From an uncultured Gammaproteobacteria bacterium (GTDB taxonomy: Bacteria; Patescibacteriota; Patescibacteriia; Magasanikbacterales; GWA2-37-8), in the NCBI GenBank assembly GCA_964482695.1, contig CAYZYP010000002.1, forward strand, positions 46,962 through 110,961: a stretch of 64,000 nucleotides of DNA, in the 5' to 3' direction. The position numbers and the translations under genes were made by a program. The notes beneath the pieces were generated by a model. It was not told where the DNA came from, did no database searches, and was given only the letters and a program-made list of their open reading frames with translations. Numbering within the stretch: the first letter of the stretch is position 1; every line of letters starts with the position of its first letter. This document shows, piece after piece, positions 8,450 to 64,000 of the stretch.

Positions 8450-9202
8450 ATGATCAGCATTATTATTCCGGTTTATAACCATGCCCACATCTTGGAACGC
8501 AGTTTATGTTCGGTTTGCGCGCAAACCTATCGGCCGCTTGAAGTGATTATTGTAAATGATGGCAGTACGGATAATTTTGAAAAGGTAATGAGCAAGATAA
8601 TTATGAAGAATATGGAGAGAGGAATAAATAATGAAATAAAAATCAAGGTGATAAATCAAGAAAATAAAGGGGCAAGCGCGGCTAGAAATAGGGGATTTAA
8701 AGAGGCTACAGGTAAGTATGTAATTTTTTGGGACGCGGATACAATCGCCCAGCCAAAAATGCTAGAAAAAATGTTAAATGCTTTACAAAATAATCCATCG
8801 GCTAGTTATGCTTATAGTCAATTTAAATTTGGTTGGAAAAAAATAAAAAGTCATGAATTTGACCCTGATTTACTTAAAAAAATAAATTATATTGATGCCA
8901 CTTCTTTGATTAGAAAAAAAGATTACGTAGAATGTTTTTCCGCCAAAGCCGGACCAGCCTTGGGCTGGGATGAATCACTAAAACGTTTTCAAGACTGGGA
9001 TTTGTGGCTAACAATGTTAGAAAAAAATAAAACAGGCGTTTTTGTGCCCGAAGTTTTATTTAAAAAAATAGTTAGTGGCCGCAAGGGGATTAGCAATTGG
9101 CTGCCCAGTTTTGTTTATAAATTGCCGTGGAAAGGTAAAAAAGTTTTAGAATATGAGCAAACCAAAGAAATAATTTTTAAAAAGCATTTAGACGGCGCAT
9201 AA
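8450..9202 (+). CDS. Glycosyltransferase family 2
   Basis: IIIPVYN....VIIVNDGSTD and DADT resemble the GT2 DXD region. Confidence 0.85.
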   Translation: MISIIIPVYNHAHILERSLCSVCAQTYRPLEVIIVNDGSTDNFEKVMSKIIMKNMERGINNEIKIKVINQENKGASAARNRGFKEATGKYVIFWDADTIAQPKMLEKMLNALQNNPSASYAYSQFKFGWKKIKSHEFDPDLLKKINYIDATSLIRKKDYVECFSAKAGPALGWDESLKRFQDWDLWLTMLEKNKTGVFVPEVLFKKIVSGRKGISNWLPSFVYKLPWKGKKVLEYEQTKEIIFKKHLDGA

Positions 9203-9260
9203 ACATTCTTTTTCGCGCTGCGGACTTCGCCGCGACTGCGAAAAAGAATGTTTATGCGCC
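9194..9260. terminator. Bidirectional palindrome shared by the converging GT2 and ligase-like genes
   Basis: 23-bp arms GGCGCATAAACATTCTTTTTCGC / GCGAAAAAGAATGTTTATGCGCC around a 21-nt GC-rich loop. Each arm also encodes the terminal Gly-Ala-stop of one of the two genes. Confidence 0.55.
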
Positions 9261-10706
9261 TTTTAAGTCGTAACTAATTTTAGTCATTATTGCCGTTAGT
9301 AGAATAATTCCCAAAACATGAAATAAAGCCGGTGAAGTGAGATTGATAATCAAAAGAGAAATAAGCATTGCTAAAATATATCTTTTATTTTTAATCCTAT
9401 ATTTTTTTAATATTAAAAATAAAAGATTAAAAATAAAAGATAACCAAATCAAAAATCCAACCATTCCCATTTCATCAATTATTTCCAAATACCCCCAGTC
9501 AAATTGAGTAGTGGTGATTTCTTTCTTAACGACTGGGCTATAGACAGTAACCGTGTCTCCCAAACCATTTCCCCAAAGTGGTTTTTGTTTTATTTTCTCC
9601 CAAATTTTTGGCAGTAGCATCATTCTTGATAGGGAGCTTTTTTCTATTGAAGGCGAGGCAATACTGCCAATTCGTAAGCCTAATAATTCCCAACCAAAAC
9701 TTTGTCCTCGGCTGGCGGCTAAATGAATAGATGAGAAAATTAAGATAAAAATAAAAATAGAACCAAGAGAATAAATAAGCCAGCGTTTCCAATATTGACG
9801 ACTAAATAAAAATAATAATCCGATCAAATAGGCTAGAATGTAAATACGAGTGAGGTTGAGAGAGAAAATGATAAGTAAAGACAAGATAATAAAATGATAA
9901 AATATTTTATCATTTTTGTCATCCCGAGCCACAGCGAGGGATCTCTGTCCGTTCACATAAGTATAGTTGGTATTTGTAGACAGAGATTCCTCGCTTCGCT
10001 CGGAATGACAGTCCTGTCTTGCAACTATTTGATAAATAAAATACAACAACACCGGCACTAACAACAAATGTTCATTAACTACCATCCGGTAAAAATTATT
10101 ATTTAAGTCAGTTATTTTGCCGCCAACAATATTTCTAAACCAATGATAATAGCTATCTTGCAACACTAAAATGTCAGAAGAATAGCTAATAAAAGTCAGT
10201 AAAACAAAAATTACATTGCCGATAATAGCCGCGCCGAGCATGGCAAAAGCCGTTTGTTTGAATTTTTCCGAATGCCATAACTCACATAAAGGAAAATAAT
10301 ACAAAAAGAAAAAATAGGGGATAGCGTCGGCAAAAATTTGGTGTGGATTATGGCCAGCATAATAACCAAGAGTAGAAGAAATAAAAACGATTAATAAAAT
10401 AGCTGAAAAAAGATAACAGATGATCTTGCTGTCTTTAAAAATTGTTTTGTATTTTTTATTATTTATTATCTGTATTGTATAAATTATTAATGAACAAATT
10501 AACAATAACGTTCTTAATGATGTCGAGTTAATGCTAAAAACCCCGCCCGCCCCGCCCAAAATAATTTCACCGGCAATAATATACCAACCACGTTCGTCTT
10601 TTTTTAAAAGTAAGTAAACAGTTGTGGCGAGTATAATAAAAGATAGAAAATAATTTATATACGACATTTCCGGGCTAAAAAAATACGAAAAAAGACGTGT
10701 GAACAC
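9252..10706 (-). CDS. O-antigen ligase/polymerase-like (Wzy_C-type) polytopic membrane protein carrying an in-frame palindromic-element insertion
   Basis: 484 aa, many TM helices, with a periplasmic-loop motif ...WGNGLGDT... resembling Wzy_C. The segment QDCHSERSEESLSTNTNYTYVNGQRSLAVARDDKNDK is encoded by repeat copy A. Confidence 0.55.
   Translation of the reverse strand: MFTRLFSYFFSPEMSYINYFLSFIILATTVYLLLKKDERGWYIIAGEIILGGAGGVFSINSTSLRTLLLICSLIIYTIQIINNKKYKTIFKDSKIICYLFSAILLIVFISSTLGYYAGHNPHQIFADAIPYFFFLYYFPLCELWHSEKFKQTAFAMLGAAIIGNVIFVLLTFISYSSDILVLQDSYYHWFRNIVGGKITDLNNNFYRMVVNEHLLLVPVLLYFIYQIVARQDCHSERSEESLSTNTNYTYVNGQRSLAVARDDKNDKIFYHFIILSLLIIFSLNLTRIYILAYLIGLLFLFSRQYWKRWLIYSLGSIFIFILIFSSIHLAASRGQSFGWELLGLRIGSIASPSIEKSSLSRMMLLPKIWEKIKQKPLWGNGLGDTVTVYSPVVKKEITTTQFDWGYLEIIDEMGMVGFLIWLSFIFNLLFLILKKYRIKNKRYILAMLISLLIINLTSPALFHVLGIILLTAIMTKISYDLKGA
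9918..10011. repeat. RPE-like palindromic element, copy A (full), in-frame inside the ligase-like CDS
   Basis: Left arm GTCATCCCGAGCCACAGCGAGGGATCTCTGTC, ~30-nt loop, right arm GACAGAGATTCCTCGCTTCGCTCGGAATGAC; homologous to the copies at 26855 and 11441. Confidence 0.8.
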
Positions 10707-10749
10707 GTAAATAAGAAAAAAATAAAATATGTTATATTTACTTATTATA

Positions 10750-11685
10750 TTATAATTTAAAATTATTAAGCTGCTTGTACCCGTTTATAAAATCCTTTGC
10801 TTTCATTGGCTTTTTTCCTTCCATTTGTAATTCTAAAATTTCTATACAGCCGCTATTACAACCGATAAAAATCTTTTCATCTTTATAAACCACTATCTTG
10901 TTTTCTATTTTTGCCTCGGATGGTTTGATTCTTAACAATTTTAATCTTTGATTTTTTACCTCTATATATATTCCCGGCCAAGGCGTTAACCCCCTGTATT
11001 GATTATAAATTTCCTGGGCTGTTTTATTAAAATCAACCAAGCCGTCTTCGCGCTTCAATATCTTGCAAAATGTAGCTTTTTTGTCATCTTGTGGTTTGGG
11101 GGAAATCTTACCGTCTACATAGGCTGGAATAGTGTTTAAAAGCATTTCAGAGGCCATTTTAGCGGCTTTAGCGTGTAAAGTGGTATAAGTGTCATCTGGC
11201 TCAATATTAAGCGTTTTTTGCGCCAAAATCGGCCCATGATCCATTTTTGCGTCAATGAGCATTATACTAACTCCGGTCTGGCTTTCACCATTTATTAAAA
11301 CCGATTGAATAGGCGATGGGCCGCGATATAAGGGGAGTAGAGAAGGATGAATATTGATAGACCCATGTTTGGGAATGTCTATTATATTTTGTGGAATAAG
11401 TAAGCCATAATCTACCACAATGTTTAAATCAATTTTTTTTGTCATCCCGAGGAGGTTCGCACCGACGAGGGATCTCTGTAATTTTTCCGGTTGCTCTATT
11501 TGCAAACCATGTTTTTGAGCCAAAAGTTTTACTGGTGGCAGTTGCAACTCTTGTTTACGCCCAACCGGCTTATCTGGTTGGGTAATAACTAGTTCAACCT
11601 TAACCAAAGGATTATTTATTAACCCTTGTAAAATCACAGTCGCGAAATCACCAGTACCAAAAAAGATGATGCTTATTTTTGTCAT
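10750..11685 (-). CDS. fmt: Methionyl-tRNA formyltransferase, with a short in-frame insertion from a half palindromic element
   Basis: Contains IIFFGTGDFA, HGSINIHPSLLPLYRGPSPIQ and the C-terminal domain. QRSLVGANLLGMTKK in the interdomain linker is encoded by repeat copy B. Confidence 0.92.
   Translation of the reverse strand: MTKISIIFFGTGDFATVILQGLINNPLVKVELVITQPDKPVGRKQELQLPPVKLLAQKHGLQIEQPEKLQRSLVGANLLGMTKKIDLNIVVDYGLLIPQNIIDIPKHGSINIHPSLLPLYRGPSPIQSVLINGESQTGVSIMLIDAKMDHGPILAQKTLNIEPDDTYTTLHAKAAKMASEMLLNTIPAYVDGKISPKPQDDKKATFCKILKREDGLVDFNKTAQEIYNQYRGLTPWPGIYIEVKNQRLKLLRIKPSEAKIENKIVVYKDEKIFIGCNSGCIEILELQMEGKKPMKAKDFINGYKQLNNFKL
11441..11479. repeat. RPE-like palindromic element, copy B (solo left arm) inside fmt
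   Basis: GTCATCCCGAGGAGGTTCGCACCGACGAGGGATCTCTGT is near-identical to the left arm of copy C; no right arm follows. Confidence 0.75.
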
Positions 11686-22611: not shown

Positions 22612-23002
22612 TTATATTAAAAAATTTTACAGATAATATTTTTTTGTGGATAACTTCCATTGACCAAGAATAACTTTTCATCTAAACTATCTTTAGTTCT
22701 TTCAAATATATCAAGAGCGGTGCGAGGGAATCGGCCCGACAACCACCCAGCAACCCCCAAAGCGGGGGTGCTAATTCCGAACCCTAAATACAGGGAAAGA
22801 TAAGTTTTGTCTTGTCTACCCGCCTCTGGCGGAGACAAGGCAAAAAACGCTTTTTTAAAAAGGCCTTTTACTCTTTCTTTGTGATATATTTAGGGTAAAG
22901 GGCTTTTTTGTTTTATTATGTAAAAATTGTATTTCCATTCATAGACGGTTTAAGAATTAAAACAATTTAATTTTTAAACCGTCTATGACGGAAGGAGAAG
23001 AA

Positions 23003-23155
23003 ATGAAAAAAAAGGATAAAAAAAAATCCCCGCCCACACCCCCGCCTCTTTCACGAGAAAAATTAGAGGAGTTGGCCAATGCTGGCCAACTCCGTCCTTC
23101 TTTTTTCTGCGATTCGCGCATGGCCAAAGTAGCGGCCAACAACGCGGGTCGTTAG
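23003..23155 (+). CDS. Small hypothetical protein (50 aa), Pro/Lys-rich N-terminus
   Basis: Strong Shine-Dalgarno AAGGAG 5 nt upstream of the ATG, which is unusual here, and a 14-bp hairpin immediately before it. An antisense ORF (22957..23142) overlaps. Confidence 0.3.
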   Translation: MKKKDKKKSPPTPPPLSREKLEELANAGQLRPSFFCDSRMAKVAANNAGR

Positions 23156-23771
23156 CCACCGAGGCAATTCCCTCCCCATGGGTCGACCTCGGTGGCGACC
23201 CAATCCCTTTTCAAAAAATCATAAACTTAAAATTACATAAAAACACCCCGACTAAGTCAGAGTGTTTTTAAATTTTGCTTTCCAGTCAGTGAATATTTTT
23301 TGCAACATTGTTATCCCCGCGAAAGTGGGGGATCCAGAATAGTTGTAAAAAATACAGGGGACTGGAACGCAGTACCCATTTGGTTTTTTTTGGCGCGGAA
23401 CGCGCCTAAGAGAGGAGATTATTGCTCGGCAACCTCGATTCCGGGGTCGCTGAGATTATACCCGGAGAGTTGGAGGCTGCCCGGGTAGCGGAAGATGAGG
23501 CGGTCATAGGAGTACCACCTCGATGCTGAATTTTTGTGCGGGCGTGCTAGAATTTCCTTGTTTCTCGCCCGTTTTTCAGTAGAAGGCGTCCGTATTCCAC
23601 CGAAGAAAAAAATGGTGGTTTTTTTTCCATCTTTTTCCAGTGTTGCGTTCAACATGTTTTTTGCCATCGCTTCTTCCTTTCTTGTAACGTGGTTGTACGA
23701 CCAGAATTGGATGAAAGAATACCAAAGAGAGAGAGTTGTCAAGAAAAAGCGATGCTGATATAATTACTCAC

Positions 23772-24914
23772 ATGAATCTAATAATCCACCCAGACGAACT
23801 ATTTCTTAAAGGCGCTAATCAGCGCTTGTTTTACGATCAATTAATTAATAATTTAAAGCAAATATTTAAACAAATAAAAGTTGAAAGAACAGAAAGCGGT
23901 TTGTGGGTAGAAAATTTTGAAGAAAATAAACTAAGTCAATTAGCCAAAGTTCCTGGTATTTCCAATTTCGCGGTAGGGGAGAGAGGGGGAAATGGAGTGG
24001 AGGAAATAAAGAAAAATGTTTTAAATTTATTGAAACAAATGTCTCGGGATGACAAAGATGCTGTAACTTTTCGCGTTACTACCACTCGTTCCTATAAAGG
24101 TTACCCACTATCTTCCAAACAGCTAGACATAGAAATTGGCGATTTTGTGCGACAAAAATACGGTTGGCAAGTTAATTTAAAAAATTACGATTTAAACATC
24201 TCTGTTAATATTGGCAAAGAGAATGCCACAGTCTATTCAAATCCAATTGAAGGTGCTGGCGGCCTGCCAACTGGTGTTTCTGGCAAAATGCTTTGTCTTT
24301 TGTCCGGTGGCATAGACAGCCCGGTGGCGGCCTATAAAATGATGACTAGGGGCGCGGAAGTAGGTTTGATTCATTTTCAAAATCAAACCTCGGTTACAGA
24401 CGAAGTGAGCGAGAAAATTTTTGATTTAGCCAAAATATTATCTTTATACCAGTCTAAAATTAAAATTTTCATTATTCCTTTTGCTGATCTTCAAAAACAA
24501 GTAGTGATGAGTATTCCGGCCGAATATCGCATGCTTGTAACACGTCGCTTATTTTTTAAAATAGCCGAAAATATTGCCAAAAACAATAATTACCAAGCAC
24601 TAATAACTGGCGATAGCCTTGGTCAAGTGGCTTCACAAACAGTAGAAAACCTAACTGTTACCAGCCAAGCGGTGGAAATGTTAAAATTTTCACCATTGAT
24701 TGGTGCTAATAAAAAAGATATAATGGAGATGGCAAAACAAATCGGCACTTACGAAATATCTACCAGGCCATACGAAGATTGTTGCAGTTTATTTGTCGCC
24801 AAACATCCACAAACCAGAGCAAAAATAAATGACGTTTTAAAACTAGAAAAAAATCTATCTTTGCCGGATCTTGACAAAACAACCTTTAAATCATACTATA
24901 TTAGTAATAATTAG
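23772..24914 (+). CDS. thiI: tRNA 4-thiouridine(8) synthase / thiamine sulfur-carrier adenylyltransferase ThiI
   Basis: THUMP-like N-terminus and PP-loop SGGIDSP. Start chosen at MNLIIHPDELFLKG; the ORF track gives 23736. Confidence 0.88.
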   Translation: MNLIIHPDELFLKGANQRLFYDQLINNLKQIFKQIKVERTESGLWVENFEENKLSQLAKVPGISNFAVGERGGNGVEEIKKNVLNLLKQMSRDDKDAVTFRVTTTRSYKGYPLSSKQLDIEIGDFVRQKYGWQVNLKNYDLNISVNIGKENATVYSNPIEGAGGLPTGVSGKMLCLLSGGIDSPVAAYKMMTRGAEVGLIHFQNQTSVTDEVSEKIFDLAKILSLYQSKIKIFIIPFADLQKQVVMSIPAEYRMLVTRRLFFKIAENIAKNNNYQALITGDSLGQVASQTVENLTVTSQAVEMLKFSPLIGANKKDIMEMAKQIGTYEISTRPYEDCCSLFVAKHPQTRAKINDVLKLEKNLSLPDLDKTTFKSYYISNN

Positions 24915-41878: not shown

Positions 41879-41922
41879 ATAAGGAAGCCTCGGCGCGCAA
41901 TGTAAAGCGACGCCGAGGCAAT

Positions 41923-41994
41923 ACGGGGCAAGAGGATTCGAACCTCCGACTGTGGGTTGTCAACCCACCACTCTGCCAACTGAGTTATGCCCCG
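41923..41994 (-). tRNA. tRNA-Val (anticodon GAC)
   Basis: Hand-folded cloverleaf: acceptor CGGGGCA/TGCCCCG, D stem ACTC/GAGT, anticodon stem GTGGG/CCCAC with loop TTGACAA, T arm GGAGG-TTCGAAT-CCTCT. CCA is not encoded. Confidence 0.8.
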
Positions 41995-42000
41995 AAATAA

Positions 42001-42073
42001 AGCGGGAAGCTGGATTTGAACCAGCGACATCGAGTTTAAAAACTCGCGCTCTGCCATGCTGAGCTATTCCCGC
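42001..42073 (-). tRNA. tRNA with glycine-type acceptor stem and U73 discriminator but a noncanonical anticodon loop (CGAG-TTTTTAAA-CTCG); identity uncertain
   Basis: Hand-folded: acceptor GCGGGAA/TTCCCGC plus discriminator T (identical to the E. coli tRNA-Gly acceptor), D arm GCTC-AGCATGGCA-GAGC, T arm GCTGG-TTCAAAT-CCAGC. The anticodon arm folds only as a 5-bp stem with a 6-nt loop, or a 4-bp stem with an 8-nt loop. Confidence 0.6.
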
Positions 42074-42120
42074 CTAACATAAAAATTTATATCATTTTTT
42101 AGTGATCTAGTCAAGCATCT

Positions 42121-45063
42121 ATGCGTGAATTAAATTCACATCAAAAACAAGCTGTTGAATATACCAAAGGCCCGTTAATTATTGTCGCTGGCGCGGGAAC
42201 TGGCAAAACTACCGTTATTACCAACAAAGTCGCTTATCTAATAGAAAAAAAACTGGCCCTGCCAGAAGAAATTTTGGTATTGGCGTTTAATGATAAAGCG
42301 GCCGAAGAAATAGTCGCGCGAGTAGATGAAAAACTTGATTTAGGTTACGTAGAATTACAAATTTCTACTTTTCACGCTTTTTGCCAAAAAATTTTAGAAC
42401 AATACGGACTAGAAATTGGTTTAAGCAACCAATTCAAAATATTAACTCAAACAGACGCTTGGATTTTAATACGACAAAATTTAGATAAGTTTAATCTTGA
42501 TTATTATCGCCCACTGGGCAATCCAACTCGCCATATTCACGAATTAATAAAACACTTTTCCAAATGCAAAGACGAACTTATTACCCCGCAAGAATACTTA
42601 GACTACGCCGAAAATTTAGAATTAGATAAAGATGACAACAATACAGAAGACAAAAGCAGGATTACAGAAATAGCTAACGCTTTTCATACTTACAATCAAT
42701 TATTATTAGATAACAACGCTTTGGATTTTGGAGATTTAATTCAATATGCCGTAATTCTTCTAGAAAAAAGAAAAAATGTGTCTAAACAATTACAAAATAG
42801 ATTTAAATATATTTTGGTTGATGAATTTCAAGATGTTAACTGGGCGCAGTATCAATTAGTAAGGTTTTTGGTTAATAATCAGTCACAATTAACGGTTGTG
42901 GGCGATGATGATCAATCAATTTATGCCTTTCGCGGGGCATCGGTCTCAAATATCATGCGCTTTAAAGATGATTTTCTCAAAGCCAAAGAAATAGTATTAA
43001 CAGAAAACTATCGTTCGGGGCAAAAAATCTTAGACACAGCTTATCAGTCAATACAAAATAATAACCCCGATAGGCTAGAAGCAAAACTGAAAATAGATAA
43101 AAAACTTAAATCCGCGTTAAAAATCAATAGCGAAGTTATTTATATCCACAAAACGACTCTGGACGATGAAACACGAGCGGTTGTAGAAGAAATAGGCAGA
43201 TTAAAAATAATAAACAAAGAAACAACTTGGGATGATTTTGCTATTCTAGTTAGAGCTAATAGCCATGCGCAACCTTTTATCAATATTTTAGAAGCCAAGG
43301 GTATTTCATACGAATTTTTAGCTTCTAGCGGATTATACCGCCAGCCGATTGTTTTAGATTGTTTAAATTTTTTCAAATTATTAAATAGTTATCACGAATC
43401 CACTGCTATTTATAGGCTACTTCGTTTACCATTTTTAAACTTTAAAGAAAATGATTTGCAAAAAATAACTTACAACGCTAAACGAAAAAGTATTTCCTAT
43501 TACGAGACAATAAAACGAGCGACAGAATTTAATTTGTCTCCAGATGGTCTAAAAATTTGTGATAAACTAATCGGTTTAATCCACGATGGGCTAAAAAACG
43601 CCCGTTTCAATAAGCCACACCGAGTATTGTACGAATTTTTAGAACAATCAGGATATTTAAAATATCTAGCTCATGAAGAAAACAAAAATAACAGAGAAGT
43701 TACTAGACAAATATACCAATTAACTCAGTTTTTTAATTATTTAAAAAAATACGAAGAAACGACTCCGGACGCGCATATTACTGATTTTATGATTCATTAC
43801 AATGATTTGGCTGAATCTGGCGATGAAGGCAATCTCTACCAACCTGTTGATACGCCGGATTCGGTTAATATTATAACCGTGCACAAAGCAAAAGGTTTGG
43901 AATTTAAATATGTTTTTGTTGTTAATTTAGTAGAAGACAGATTTCCAGCTCGCAAAAGGGGAGAGGGGATAGAAATGCCAGCTCCGCTTATTAAAGAACA
44001 ATTGCCAGAAGGTGATAGCCGCTTACAAGAAGAAAGAAGATTGTTCTATGTCGCCTTGACTCGCGCTAAAGAAAAATTATATTTAACCAGCGCCAGTGAT
44101 TATGGCGGAGTTAAAACTAAAAAAATTAGCAGATTTCTAGATGAATTGGGATATAAAATTATTAATTCTTTGCCGGAAAAAACAAACGAAATATTGATTA
44201 ATCAAAAAAACAAAAATTCTAACAATGACAATAATAAAGAAGGACTGGAATATTCCGTTCCAACCAATTTTTCTTTTTCACAAATCAAATCTTATAATAC
44301 CTGCCCTTATCAATACAAGCTGGGAAATATTATCAAGTTGCCCATAAAAGAAACTCATTATTTCAGTTTTGGTAATACGATGCATAATACTTTGCAAGAA
44401 TTTTATAAACGAATACAAATATTAAACAGCGCGCGACAAAACAGTTTGTTTGATTCGGTAGGGACAAGTCGCGAGATGTCTCCGTCTAATAATATTAATA
44501 TACCAGATTTAAAAGAATTATTATCTATTTACGAAGAAAAATGGCTAGATGAATGGTATTTAAACAAACAGCAACGTGAAAAATATTTTGCTGATGGTAA
44601 AAAAATGTTAACAGAATTTTATAATAGCCAAAAAAACAGCTGGACGATTCCTATAGTTTTAGAAGGGGGATTTAAAATAAAGATAAAAAATTATTTAATA
44701 AACGGGCGGATTGATAGAATAGATAAATTAGAAAAAGGCACCCTACACATTATTGATTACAAAACAGGAGCCAGCAAAGAAACCGCAGTTGGTGATGAAA
44801 AAGATCAGTTGCTGTTATATCAATTAGCTGTTTCTAGCTTGCCACAATATACTAATATTGGCTTACCGGAAAAATTAACTCTTTATTATCTAAAAGACAA
44901 TTTACAAACTAATTTTATAGGCAAAGACAAAGAAATAGAAAAATTGCAGAATAAAATAGCAACTACTATTGATAAAATTCAAGCAAAAGATTTTATGCCT
45001 ACTCCAGAAAAATTTACTTGTAAGAATTGCCATTTTAAAGATATTTGCGAATCTAGAATGTAA
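42121..45063 (+). CDS. UvrD/AddA-family ATP-dependent helicase fused to a C-terminal RecB/Cas4-like PD-(D/E)xK nuclease domain with a Cys cluster
   Basis: Walker A GAGTGKTT, the UvrD motif set, C-terminal ...IIDYKTG... and CKNCHFKDIC. Confidence 0.85.
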   Translation: MRELNSHQKQAVEYTKGPLIIVAGAGTGKTTVITNKVAYLIEKKLALPEEILVLAFNDKAAEEIVARVDEKLDLGYVELQISTFHAFCQKILEQYGLEIGLSNQFKILTQTDAWILIRQNLDKFNLDYYRPLGNPTRHIHELIKHFSKCKDELITPQEYLDYAENLELDKDDNNTEDKSRITEIANAFHTYNQLLLDNNALDFGDLIQYAVILLEKRKNVSKQLQNRFKYILVDEFQDVNWAQYQLVRFLVNNQSQLTVVGDDDQSIYAFRGASVSNIMRFKDDFLKAKEIVLTENYRSGQKILDTAYQSIQNNNPDRLEAKLKIDKKLKSALKINSEVIYIHKTTLDDETRAVVEEIGRLKIINKETTWDDFAILVRANSHAQPFINILEAKGISYEFLASSGLYRQPIVLDCLNFFKLLNSYHESTAIYRLLRLPFLNFKENDLQKITYNAKRKSISYYETIKRATEFNLSPDGLKICDKLIGLIHDGLKNARFNKPHRVLYEFLEQSGYLKYLAHEENKNNREVTRQIYQLTQFFNYLKKYEETTPDAHITDFMIHYNDLAESGDEGNLYQPVDTPDSVNIITVHKAKGLEFKYVFVVNLVEDRFPARKRGEGIEMPAPLIKEQLPEGDSRLQEERRLFYVALTRAKEKLYLTSASDYGGVKTKKISRFLDELGYKIINSLPEKTNEILINQKNKNSNNDNNKEGLEYSVPTNFSFSQIKSYNTCPYQYKLGNIIKLPIKETHYFSFGNTMHNTLQEFYKRIQILNSARQNSLFDSVGTSREMSPSNNINIPDLKELLSIYEEKWLDEWYLNKQQREKYFADGKKMLTEFYNSQKNSWTIPIVLEGGFKIKIKNYLINGRIDRIDKLEKGTLHIIDYKTGASKETAVGDEKDQLLLYQLAVSSLPQYTNIGLPEKLTLYYLKDNLQTNFIGKDKEIEKLQNKIATTIDKIQAKDFMPTPEKFTCKNCHFKDICESRM

Positions 45064-61259: not shown

Positions 61260-62729
61260 ATTAAATTTTTTAACTGCTGATTTTATTCTTCGTAAACTTT
61301 CTTCTTTGCCAAGAACATCGGCTATTTCAAATGGCCCGGGAGATTTTTCTAAACCAGACAAAATTACTCTAAATGGCCACAAAACACTGCCATTATTATA
61401 GCCATTTTCTTTTACCCACTCCCCTATTCGTTTTTTTAGGATATCTTTGTTCCATTCTTTTTCACTAAAACTATCTAGTAAATTTTCTAAAGCTGGTAAA
61501 ATTTCCTTTAATTCGTTAGCAGAACTTTTTTTCCAAATCAATAATTCTGGCTGATAATCCGGCAATTTAAATATAAACTCTATCGCGCTCGGCAATTCGG
61601 ATAAAATCGCTATCCGTTCTCTTTCCAAAGACACTGCTTTGGTTAACAATTCACTTTTTTCAGCTATTTTTTCTAACCATGGCCAAGCTTTTTCTACCAA
61701 TTCGCTATCACTCAACTTCTTGATATATTGTTTATTATACCACGCTAGCTTATCCATGTTAAATATCGCACCAGCTTTGCCCACTTTTTCCAAATCAAAC
61801 TCACTCACCAGCTCTTTTAAAGTAAACAATTCCCTATCATCACCGGGATTCCAACCTAAAAAGGCGACAAAATTAATTAACGCTTCTGGCAAATAACCTT
61901 TTTTAATATAATCTTCTACCGCCACATCGCCTTGACGCTTGCTTAACTTTGATTTATCTGAATTAAGTAGTAGTGGCAGGTGTGCCATTTGAGGAATTTC
62001 CCAACCAAAATATTTGTAAAGCTGAATATGTTTTGGCACGCTTGAAATCCATTCTTCACCGCGAATAATGTGTGATACTTCCATTAGATGATCGTCGACA
62101 ACAACTGCAAGATGATAAGTTGGGTAACCATCCGATTTTAAAATAACTTGATCATCAATTAATTCATTTTTAATTTTTACTTCACCGCGAATCAGATCTT
62201 TAAAAATAGTTTCGCCGGTTTTTGGCATTTTCATTCGCACGACGTATTTTCCACCAGCAGAAATTCTTTTTTTAGCTTCTTCTAAATTTATTTCACGACA
62301 ATGGCCATCATAGCCGGTAGGCAATTTTTTCTTTTGCTGGCGATCACGTAATTCTGTTAATCTTTCGGGAGTACAAAAACAATAATAGGCGTGGCCTTTT
62401 TCTAAAAGCTCGTTAACATATTTTTTATAAATATCTAATCGTTCTGATTGGATGTACGAACCGTTTTCCCCTTCTTGTATTGTTTGGCACTCCCCTGTTG
62501 ACTCATAATCTAATTTTACTCCTTCATCTGGCATGATGCCTGCCCAATAAAGAGATTTTAAAATATTAGTAACACCATCAGCTACAAAACGTTCGCGATC
62601 GGTATCTTCAATTCGTAATAAAAACTTACCACCATTTTTTTTGGCGAATAAATATGAATACAGCGCGGTGCGCAGACCGCCTATGTGCAAGTAACCGGTT
62701 GGGCTGGGGGCAAAACGAGTTTTAATCAT
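61251..62729 (-). CDS. gltX: Glutamyl-tRNA synthetase
   Basis: Motifs RFAPSPTGYLHIGG (HIGH) and KLSKR (KMSKS). Confidence 0.95.
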   Translation of the reverse strand: MIKTRFAPSPTGYLHIGGLRTALYSYLFAKKNGGKFLLRIEDTDRERFVADGVTNILKSLYWAGIMPDEGVKLDYESTGECQTIQEGENGSYIQSERLDIYKKYVNELLEKGHAYYCFCTPERLTELRDRQQKKKLPTGYDGHCREINLEEAKKRISAGGKYVVRMKMPKTGETIFKDLIRGEVKIKNELIDDQVILKSDGYPTYHLAVVVDDHLMEVSHIIRGEEWISSVPKHIQLYKYFGWEIPQMAHLPLLLNSDKSKLSKRQGDVAVEDYIKKGYLPEALINFVAFLGWNPGDDRELFTLKELVSEFDLEKVGKAGAIFNMDKLAWYNKQYIKKLSDSELVEKAWPWLEKIAEKSELLTKAVSLERERIAILSELPSAIEFIFKLPDYQPELLIWKKSSANELKEILPALENLLDSFSEKEWNKDILKKRIGEWVKENGYNNGSVLWPFRVILSGLEKSPGPFEIADVLGKEESLRRIKSAVKKFNIC

Positions 62730-62779
62730 AAATGAATTAAAATCTAAATTCTAACATCGGAATGAGAATTTAGTTTGGT

Positions 62780-63514
62780 TTAGGATTTTATTATTAACAA
62801 CAAAAACTTAAATGTCGCTTTAAAAATCCTCTCTGCTCTTTTTGGTTGTTTTATTAATCTATACATCCATTCTAACCCAATTTTACGTAGCCAGCAAGGC
62901 GCGCGTTTAACAAATCCGGAAATATAATCAAAAGCACCGCCAACACCCATAGCGATTTTAACGCTCGGCATTTTATTCAAATTCTCGTAAATCCATTTTT
63001 CTTGCTTATTGTGGCCAAAAGCGATAAATAAAATGTCTGGCTTAAAACTGTTTATCTTGTATAAAATTTTACTATTTTCCGCTTGATCATAAATTAGTTG
63101 TTGGCTGTTTTTATCTAAAACATAACTCGCGCCTTGGTCATAGCCAACAATTTTAAGTTTGGGAAATTGTTTTTGTAAATTTTCAACTGTTTTTTTAACA
63201 ATTTCATCACTACCCGACCCTAACAAATACACCTCTCTCCCCTCTTTTTCCGCGATTTCACATATTTCCAGCATAAAATCAATGCCGGTAATTCGCTTAC
63301 ACCCAGAAACCAAAGCTAATCCAAACCCATCGCATAAATTTAGATCACCACTATTTAATACTTCCTTAAAATATTCATCTTTTCGCGCGTCTACCAGCAT
63401 TTCCGGATTAGGTGTAAATATTTTATATTGCTTATCGGAATTTAAAAATTCAAGCACTTTATTTTTTGCTTCTATTATGTTTGGTTCACTTATTTTAACT
63501 CCCAAGTAACCCAT
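62780..63514 (-). CDS. WecB/TagA/CpsF-family glycosyltransferase (GT26)
   Basis: Contains CDGFGL.., ...QEKW... and MGVGGAFDY. Confidence 0.85.
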   Translation of the reverse strand: MGYLGVKISEPNIIEAKNKVLEFLNSDKQYKIFTPNPEMLVDARKDEYFKEVLNSGDLNLCDGFGLALVSGCKRITGIDFMLEICEIAEKEGREVYLLGSGSDEIVKKTVENLQKQFPKLKIVGYDQGASYVLDKNSQQLIYDQAENSKILYKINSFKPDILFIAFGHNKQEKWIYENLNKMPSVKIAMGVGGAFDYISGFVKRAPCWLRKIGLEWMYRLIKQPKRAERIFKATFKFLLLIIKS

Positions 63515-63525
63515 ATTTTAAACCA

Positions 63526-63981
63526 TTAATTTTTCTGGCCCGCGAGTTCTTTAATATATAATCTATTAGACATTGACGCCAATTCTCCAGCTAAATACTG
63601 CTTATGTTTTATTCTTTCTATTAATTTTTCTTCTAAACCATGCATTTCTTTTAAACGTTTTTCAGTTAAACTAAACATTTTATCAAAATACCCTACTTTT
63701 TTTATTTCAAATAACGCTATCTCATCTTTTAATTTCGTTAATTTTTGATGTAAGACCTCAATTTCTCTTCTTAATCTATATACTTTACTCGTTATCTGAT
63801 CAGAATTATAATCACCTGCTTTAACCTTTGCTATTACATCATCTTCTAAGGCGTATTCTGATTCTCTGTTTAATGGCGCCACACCCTCTATTCTTTCAAA
63901 CGGCAAACCTGTTATTATTACCGTTTCATTTAAATCAGCTGGCAAACCTTCTGCTTGTTTAGTTTGAAAACCTTCATACAT
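63526..63981 (-). CDS. Hypothetical coiled-coil protein
   Basis: 151 aa, complete within the window (an upstream in-frame stop is present); no recognisable family. Confidence 0.35.
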   Translation of the reverse strand: MYEGFQTKQAEGLPADLNETVIITGLPFERIEGVAPLNRESEYALEDDVIAKVKAGDYNSDQITSKVYRLRREIEVLHQKLTKLKDEIALFEIKKVGYFDKMFSLTEKRLKEMHGLEEKLIERIKHKQYLAGELASMSNRLYIKELAGQKN

Positions 63982-64000
63982 ATAAAATATTTTTTAAATT

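Follow-up and report, generated by a model that had tools for sequence, protein, structure and literature searches.

Glycyl-tRNA synthetase (GlyRS) recognises its tRNA by U73, the first three base pairs of the acceptor stem, and the anticodon nucleotides C35 and C36. The known suppressors of +1 frameshifts retain the anticodon stem of five base pairs and have gained a single base, which results in an arm of 18 nt with an 8-nt loop. The classic examples with expanded loops are the sufD tRNA-Gly(CCCC), the SufA6 and SufB2 forms of tRNA-Pro, and the SufJ tRNA-Thr (PMC4238358). An 8-nt anticodon loop is also found in the yeast mitochondrial tRNA-Thr1(UAG), which decodes CUN (PMC3113583, PMC7609411). 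All the known reassignments of stop codons in bacteria involve UGA (PMC8629427). In the phages, only the reassignment of TAG to Gln and of TGA to Trp has been observed, and that of TAA is undescribed (bioRxiv 10.1101/2021.08.26.457843).

The locus described here lies in a 64-kb stretch of DNA (64,000 nucleotides, referred to below as the window) from the genome of a groundwater member of the Magasanikbacteria (CPR), in which ARAGORN recognises two tRNAs, both on the minus strand. One of these, referred to here as tRNA-X, has 73 nt (42073..42001, minus strand), and is labelled 'tRNA-???' by the program, with a two-base anticodon 'tt' (42000-42074). It matches the Rfam model RF00005 from end to end (42001-42073) with 59.9 bits, where the gathering score is 29, in an alignment with one position of the anticodon loop deleted. 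The RNA reads GCGGGAA UA GCUC AGCAUGGCA GAGC G CGAG UUUUUAAA CUCG AUGUC GCUGG UUCAAAU CCAGC UUCCCGC U, and its fold has a free energy of -32.2 kcal/mol (z = -4.28), which was equalled or bettered by none of 200 shuffled sequences. The stems are Watson-Crick throughout, with flawless acceptor, D, and T arms, and the tertiary nucleotides are complete (U8-A14, G15-C48, G18/G19, A21, and G26-A44), as is the set of the T arm (G53-C61, U54-A58, U55, and C56). The CCA end is encoded neither in tRNA-X nor in its neighbour, tRNA-Val(GAC), and the same is true of the tRNA-Lys of the lineage. The cloverleaf, the 7-bp acceptor stem, the D and T arms, and the tertiary set are all those of RF00005, and the only departure is in the anticodon arm, which does not have a 5-bp stem with a 7-nt loop that presents U33, a triplet, and a purine at position 37. 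The tRNA-X is thus a genuine tRNA gene. A first-pass annotation, made from the letters of the window, had described a glycine-type body with textbook D and T arms and a malformed anticodon loop of U and A only, and this anatomy is confirmed by both ARAGORN and Rfam; the strand, which had been left unstated, is the minus strand.

The acceptor stem of tRNA-X (GCGGGAA/UUCCCGC) and its U73 are identical to those of the E. coli tRNA-Gly(GCC), a correspondence already claimed in that annotation, which was verified here with a reference sequence checked against 5,426 E. coli genomes. The acceptor identity set of tRNA-Gly (G1-C72, C2-G71, G3-C70, and U73) is present in full. In IMG/VR, all 15 of the tRNAs that carry this acceptor stem in the tRNA frame are tRNA-Gly(GCC), and all 13 of the full-length tRNAs that combine TTCAAAT...TTCCCGC with T73 are tRNA-Gly (GCC, UCC, CCC, or ACC). 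A body-based pattern recovered only ordinary tRNA-Gly(GCC) from the viral contigs. The best BLAST match among 50,697 phage genomes was the tRNA-Phe of a Vibrio phage (83.6% identity), which has the acceptor stem and T arm of tRNA-X, but A73. As this tRNA-Phe shares the stem, the acceptor stem alone is not diagnostic, and it is the stem together with U73 that indicates glycine. The anticodon of tRNA-Gly (NCC) is absent, given that the loop (UUUUAA or UUUUUAAA) contains no C, and hence neither C35 nor C36, as had been noted previously. By the established identity rules, tRNA-X carries the GlyRS signals of the acceptor and none of those of the anticodon. An origin from tRNA-Lys by a deletion was considered and rejected, because the tRNA-Lys(UUU) of the Magasanikbacteria (in L041 and L077) has a different body, the loop CUUUUAA, and A73, while tRNA-X has no UUU in a 7-nt loop, no A73, and no lineage-like tRNA-Lys body. 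The supplement of a paper on tRNA introns in the Patescibacteria contained no matching tRNA.

The anticodon arm, CGAG-UUUUUAAA-CUCG (42031..42046, minus strand), has 16 nt rather than the canonical 17, and can form a loop of 6, 4, or 8 nt, none of them 7. Of the possible cloverleaves, that with four base pairs and an 8-nt loop has the lowest stability (-27.6 kcal/mol), while that with five base pairs and the 6-nt loop UUUUAA has -29.0 kcal/mol, and that with six base pairs and a UUUA tetraloop, -29.7 kcal/mol, which leaves the 8-nt form 1.4-2.1 kcal/mol worse than the closed forms. The pairing probabilities in the ensemble are 0.97 for U31-A39 and 0.74 for U32-A38, and the arm is predicted to be contracted rather than expanded. 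The first-pass annotation had allowed loops of six or eight bases, but never seven. The 6-nt loop and the exclusion of seven stand, and a 4-nt tetraloop is to be added; the 8-nt loop is disfavoured, since a U-A pair with a probability of 0.97 would have to break. The appeal to an 8-nt loop as the hallmark of a +1 suppressor falls for an arm of 16 nt that prefers five or six base pairs with a loop of six or four. The runs of T3 and A5 at 42035-42042 were correctly placed, on the plus strand, and it is also correct that the loop is a single indel away from both UUUUUAA (anticodon UUU) and UUUUAAA (anticodon UUA). A loop of tRNA-Gly, such as UUUCCAA between U and A, would need at least two changes (C-to-U and a deletion) to give that of tRNA-X, both of them within the anticodon. 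Only a Gly-bodied tRNA with UUU, or one with UUA, could give rise to this loop in a single step, and either would itself be extraordinary.

The JGI assembly 3300009296 and an ENA/MEGAHIT assembly of SRR2177951 both contain the 247 bp that separate the flanking genes in exactly the form seen in the window, and their contigs match the window at 100% across 4.4-6.5 kb, although the identical assemblies represent one clonal population, with read sets that possibly overlap. The assembled contig of SRR5855239 stops at 41925. A further contig of the same JGI sample, L149 (JGI Ga0103681_1002957), is only 97.9% identical at 8922-11051 to the right end of the window (61871-64000), which indicates the presence of a second strain; the genes at its far end have archaeal-type Pfam matches (Ribosomal_L21e and a weak RNA_pol_Rpb4), which suggests that this contig is chimeric.

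The tRNA-X forms part of a lineage-specific cassette of 245 bp (41883..42127, minus strand), of which the order of transcription is promoter, tRNA-X as the first unit, tRNA-Val(GAC), and hairpin. A sigma-70-like promoter close to the consensus (42086..42114, minus strand), composed of TTGACT (42114-42109), a 17-nt spacer, and TATAAA (42091-42086), lies upstream of tRNA-X, with 12 nt between its end and G1. It was read directly from the sequence; the A at the end of the -10 hexamer was the sole reason for its absence from the automatic scan. The tRNA-Val(GAC) (41923..41994, minus strand; ARAGORN), which has the 7-nt loop UUGACAA, follows 6 nt downstream on the same strand. A G+C-rich hairpin, CCTCGGCG(CGC)...(GCG)..CGCCGAGG (41888..41918), separates the 3' end of tRNA-Val from the end of the NUDIX gene, and is likely to be a bidirectional terminator with a weak T tract. 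Given the promoter before tRNA-X and the hairpin after tRNA-Val, the cassette represents a compact operon, apparently equipped for expression, and tRNA-X is probably transcribed. It would be the leading unit of a two-tRNA transcript, from which RNase P and 3' processing presumably excise it like other tRNAs. The adjacent tRNA-Val had been described as normal; the adjacency is right, but its body (41923-41994) has C1-G72 and U73, where bacterial tRNA-Val usually has G1-C72 and A73, so that both tRNAs of the cassette carry U73. A pattern of the anticodon and T arm of this tRNA-Val had no match in the viral contigs.

The neighbourhood of the cassette includes the ATP synthase operon, an ABC transporter, a NUDIX hydrolase, a helicase-nuclease of the UvrD/AddA type, MreBCD, PBP2, GreA, a class II aminoacyl-tRNA synthetase (Asp/Lys/Asn type), and SerRS. 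A phage or mobile-element context was rejected, since these neighbours are core housekeeping genes, with no phage or mobile genes among them, and a phage origin of the cassette was also rejected, given that BLAST against the 50,697 phage genomes returned generic tRNA similarity only. No further tRNAs were found in the 11 kb beyond one edge of the window. Elsewhere in the window, a SAM riboswitch (22705-22806, plus strand) scores 55.6 bits, above the gathering score, and is followed by some 900 bp (22807-23735) that are relatively rich in G+C and have no ORF of more than 74 aa, and then by thiI (23736-24914); the riboswitch may be an orphan, unless the region contains a small gene or RNA that has gone unrecognised.

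Every relative of the adjacent UvrD/AddA-type helicase comes from a MAG of Candidatus Magasanikbacteria or Patescibacteria, at no more than 67% protein identity. A search of the GTDB species genomes based on this helicase gave 80 loci of the Magasanikbacteria, and in none of them do the 4 kb upstream of the helicase gene contain a tRNA. In many of these 80 related species, an ABC transporter gene or the NUDIX gene (as in L034) abuts the helicase gene directly. The NUDIX gene runs directly into the helicase gene, with no cassette, in L086 (NUDIX 86% identical) and in L084 and L085 (79%), and alignment with relatives of this type shows an insertion of 245 bp in the window (~41883-42127) in place of 11-21 nt. 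In other relatives, the NUDIX and helicase genes overlap. The cassette is lineage-specific at the NUDIX-helicase position in a comparison with relatives whose NUDIX proteins are 86, 79, and 71% identical, where it is absent or the contig ends too early. As the cassette is absent there in the relatives, synteny provides no orthologue of tRNA-X, and neither synteny nor a pattern scan of 241 million metagenome records recovered a relative or orthologue family.

The 56 long ORFs of the window end in TAA (43, or 77%), TAG (7), or TGA (6), and the commonest four-base stop context is TAAA (23 of the 56). The extension of all 56 genes past their stops, in frame and in the +1 and -1 frames, led only to short tails or to the next known gene, such as atpC after atpD. 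No split genes, in-frame TAA, TAA read-through, shift-dependent genes, or genes that would need quadruplet reading were found among these 56 genes of the 64-kb window, which uses the standard code. The first-pass annotation was right that UAA serves as a stop throughout the window. The nonsense suppressor or recoding tRNA that it offered is unsupported in a stretch with these stops, this context, and no split genes, and the scan for in-frame TAA and +1 shift sites that it recommended found none in the 56 genes. An ochre suppressor presents UUA in a 7-nt loop, of which tRNA-X is one A short, and would be accompanied by in-frame TAA or by a depletion of TAA as a stop, neither of which is seen in the window. 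The inserted base of a +1 suppressor (five base pairs and 8 nt, in an arm of 18 nt) is equally absent from tRNA-X.

Similar arms were sought outside the lineage with the pattern GCTCA..GAGC-N5-TTTTTAAA..GGTTC, which places the arm in the tRNA frame. The scan of the 241 million metagenome records returned 14 matches, none with the body of tRNA-X, and a related arm pattern matched nine viral contigs, in frequencies that are hard to interpret, given that the patterns demanded a sequence of the UUUUUAAA type. Five other bodies, unrelated to one another, have contracted N4-UUUUUAAA-N4' arms with perfect four-base stems (L107 = L115, L112, L113, L120 = L158, and L125), most of them in phage or phage-like tRNA arrays, and this recurrence on unrelated bodies is a hint of possible selection for the form. 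The tRNAs of L120 and L158 are identical across two data sets, while the comparison of L115 with L107 is uninformative on conservation, because the two are 100% identical. Pfam and PHROGs searches of the neighbours of the L112 and L120 tRNAs were uninformative. Under the same body constraints, approximately 11 viral contigs have a canonical Sup(UUA), six have five base pairs with an 8-nt YUUUAAAN loop, and two have the contracted arm. With eight contigs against some 11, the odd U/A loops are not a rare error tail of the ochre suppressors.

In the phage contig L107 (12292-12442 and 12695-12769, identical in L115), two neighbouring tRNAs have GCG...CGC acceptors, U73, an encoded CCA, and 16-nt anticodon arms, with the loops CAUACG and UUUUAA; a tRNA(CUA) of the amber-suppressor type is located approximately 250 nt downstream from the pair, and the interval contains further tRNA-like sequences. 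A family with expanded loops is found in the phage arrays of eight viral or metagenome contigs (L104:407-482, L105, L106, L108, L116, L121, L122, and L123), in which a stem with the 8-nt UUUUAAAC is conserved despite variation in the D and T loops, and L122 has UUUUAAAU with a compensating U-G pair. Two other bodies have 8-nt loops, UUUUAAAC in L111 (789-862) and CUUUAAAG in L151 (5192-5268), and these tRNAs, together with the expanded-loop family, are candidates for natural quadruplet readers or attenuated ochre readers. Approximately 11 contigs of IMG/VR, and one from a metagenome, have canonical tRNAs of the ochre-suppressor type, with UUA in a 7-nt loop (L119:522-597, L152-L157, L159, and L161-L163). 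On L142 (5900-5979), a viral contig of the same sample, a tRNA-Gly(CCC) is represented by its 3' half alone, identical to that of L138, and this looks like the remnant of an integration site (att).

One of the arms identical to that of tRNA-X belongs to a tRNA-like gene between the 23S rRNA and 5S genes on a chromosome fragment of the Kaiserbacteria (L113), where the 23S gene contains a group I intron and the tRNA-like gene is flanked by an inverted repeat. Its orthologue in L127, where the neighbour protein is 78% identical, retains the 3' end of the acceptor (CACCCCGACCA) as well as both the D and the T arm, with a T stem that has changed in a compensatory manner, and has an unrelated anticodon arm (CUGU-UCCGCGA-ACAG, 15 nt), the gene being called tRNA-Ala(CGC). 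Since the acceptor and the D and T arms persist through compensatory substitutions while this arm differs, selection acts here on the cloverleaf and not on the anticodon, which implies that CPR genomes keep tRNA-shaped RNAs that do not decode. The UUUUUAAA arm would then be one of the states that a free anticodon arm can take. In the spacers of the Kaiserbacteria (L113:6391-6789; L126:1447-1768; L127:1537-1767; L129:1177-1586; L131:1721-1828), a variable element is located between conserved inverted repeats, and the 23S genes carry group I introns; the inserts of L126 and L129 are larger (130-300 nt), with modules that resemble a T arm, and L131 has none.

Normal decoding by tRNA-X is very unlikely, as a loop of six (or four) bases rather than seven, without C35 and C36, could offer neither a normal triplet to the ribosome nor the anticodon determinants of GlyRS. 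A recoding tRNA of low efficiency, inserting Gly or another residue, might read UAA as an ochre suppressor, UAAA or AAAA as a quadruplet through the form with four base pairs and an 8-nt loop, or a doublet (-1) through the 6-nt loop. Such a role draws on the single indel that separates the loop from UUA or UUU, on the Sup(UUA) and YUUUAAAN-loop tRNAs of the phage arrays, on the persistence of the 8-nt family across eight contigs with variable D and T loops, and on the ability of a natural tRNA with an 8-nt loop, the yeast mitochondrial tRNA-Thr(UAG), to decode (PMC3113583). It is nevertheless unlikely, given that the arm is contracted (16 nt) rather than expanded (18 nt), with the open 8-nt form disfavoured, that the 56 genes include no in-frame TAA or shift-dependent gene, that the known reassignments are of UGA in bacteria and of TAG to Gln and TGA to Trp in phages, and that the GlyRS anticodon determinants are absent. 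An effective reader of UAA or UAAA would also be globally harmful, because TAA ends 77% of the genes and TAAA is the commonest context. On the window alone, recoding by tRNA-X is possible but unsupported. An artefact, in which the true gene would have a 7-nt loop (T6A3 or T5A4), is highly improbable: length errors classically arise in homopolymer runs and every available copy comes from one clonal population, but the 247 bp are the same in all three assemblies, runs of five and three are too short for systematic errors in an Illumina consensus, and even the corrected product would be a Gly-bodied tRNA with UUU or UUA, and not an ordinary one. The homopolymer error with which the first-pass annotation had hedged its reading is weakened by this agreement, and the single clonal population makes it unlikely, rather than excluded.

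The reading preferred here, albeit tentatively, is that tRNA-X is a glycine-type paralogue that cannot decode, its anticodon arm having collapsed to leave a 16-nt hairpin of U and A, and that it is a young relic or passenger that accompanies a working tRNA-Val gene, rather than a suppressor. The pseudo-tRNA of the first-pass annotation is the most likely of the options that it listed: an essential feature, the anticodon loop, has been lost, as in a tRNA pseudogene, but the expression signals are intact and there is no damage elsewhere, given the promoter, the perfect stems, and the operon with tRNA-Val. The strongest argument against decay is that the body is flawless and the changes are confined to the anticodon, with a promoter in a compact genome, and neutral decay rarely hits anticodon positions only. 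The near-consensus promoter and the flawless body make a role as a non-decoding, tRNA-like RNA conceivable, in which the arms would be kept by selection and the anticodon arm closed deliberately, for example, in a Gly carrier for a non-ribosomal transferase, a module for processing or stabilisation of the tRNA-Val transcript, or a decoy or ligand of tRNA-binding proteins. The cloverleaves with free anticodon arms in the Kaiserbacteria spacer, the two tandem tRNAs with 16-nt arms in L107, which are unlikely to be the result of chance decay, and the identity of the L120 and L158 tRNAs in two data sets are all consistent with selection. This role remains doubtful, however, as no partner enzyme is found among the neighbours, no orthologues of tRNA-X were found, and the recurrence of the UUUUUAAA arm came from a pattern that demanded this sequence. 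Charging is doubtful as well, because GlyRS needs C35 and C36, and the strongest argument against function combines the absence of these determinants with the short loop, the lack of an orthologue, and the lack of recoding signals. A bolder proposal, with rather little in its favour, is that the N4-UUUUUAAA-N4' arms mark an unrecognised, anticodon-contracted class of tRNA in CPR genomes and phage arrays, charged and used on purpose, possibly as attenuated readers of UAA or UAAA for regulated read-through or frameshifting, or as aminoacyl carriers or decoys off the ribosome. For tRNA-X itself, transcription and processing, as well as the absence of charging and decoding, are predictions from the sequence.

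If tRNA-X is only a relic, it represents a clean case of a tRNA disabled by changes in the anticodon alone within an expressed operon, and a caution for those who annotate CPR genomes automatically. A functional tRNA-X would be the first tRNA of a cellular bacterium with a contracted anticodon loop and a glycine identity, and would provide a link to the odd U/A-loop tRNAs of the phage arrays, which are approximately as frequent as the ochre suppressors. This would raise the question of whether bacteria and phages use anticodon loops of other than 7 nt for the attenuated reading of stops or for non-ribosomal tasks.

In comparison with the known systems, tRNA-X shares a non-canonical loop size with the +1 suppressors, of which sufD is also a derivative of tRNA-Gly, but it has lost a base, in contrast with their 18-nt arm, and would reach an 8-nt loop only by melting a U-A pair that is 97% formed. 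Its loop, like that of the Sup(UUA) tRNAs of the phage arrays, is composed entirely of U and A, and is one A short of UUUUAAA, whereas the canonical Sup(UUA) has five base pairs and the loop CUUUAAA, and tRNA-X has a 6-nt loop in a cellular CPR host with TAA as its main stop. The yeast mitochondrial tRNA-Thr1(UAG) is another natural tRNA with a loop of other than 7 nt, and arose from a tRNA of another identity; it decodes with an enlarged loop on a full stem, while the arm of tRNA-X is shortened. The bacterial tRNA-Gly (E. coli glyV/W/X/Y, GCC) matches tRNA-X in the acceptor stem, U73, the D stem, and the class I cloverleaf, but tRNA-X lacks C35, C36, and the 7-nt loop, and has a 16-nt arm with a loop of U and A only. 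The Kaiserbacteria element (L113), also from a CPR genome, has an intact cloverleaf and an N4-UUUUUAAA-N4' arm identical to that of tRNA-X, on a different body with C1-G72, A73, and an encoded CCA, none of which is present in tRNA-X, and it resides between the processing-stem repeats of an rRNA operon, whereas tRNA-X is the leading member of a tRNA operon.
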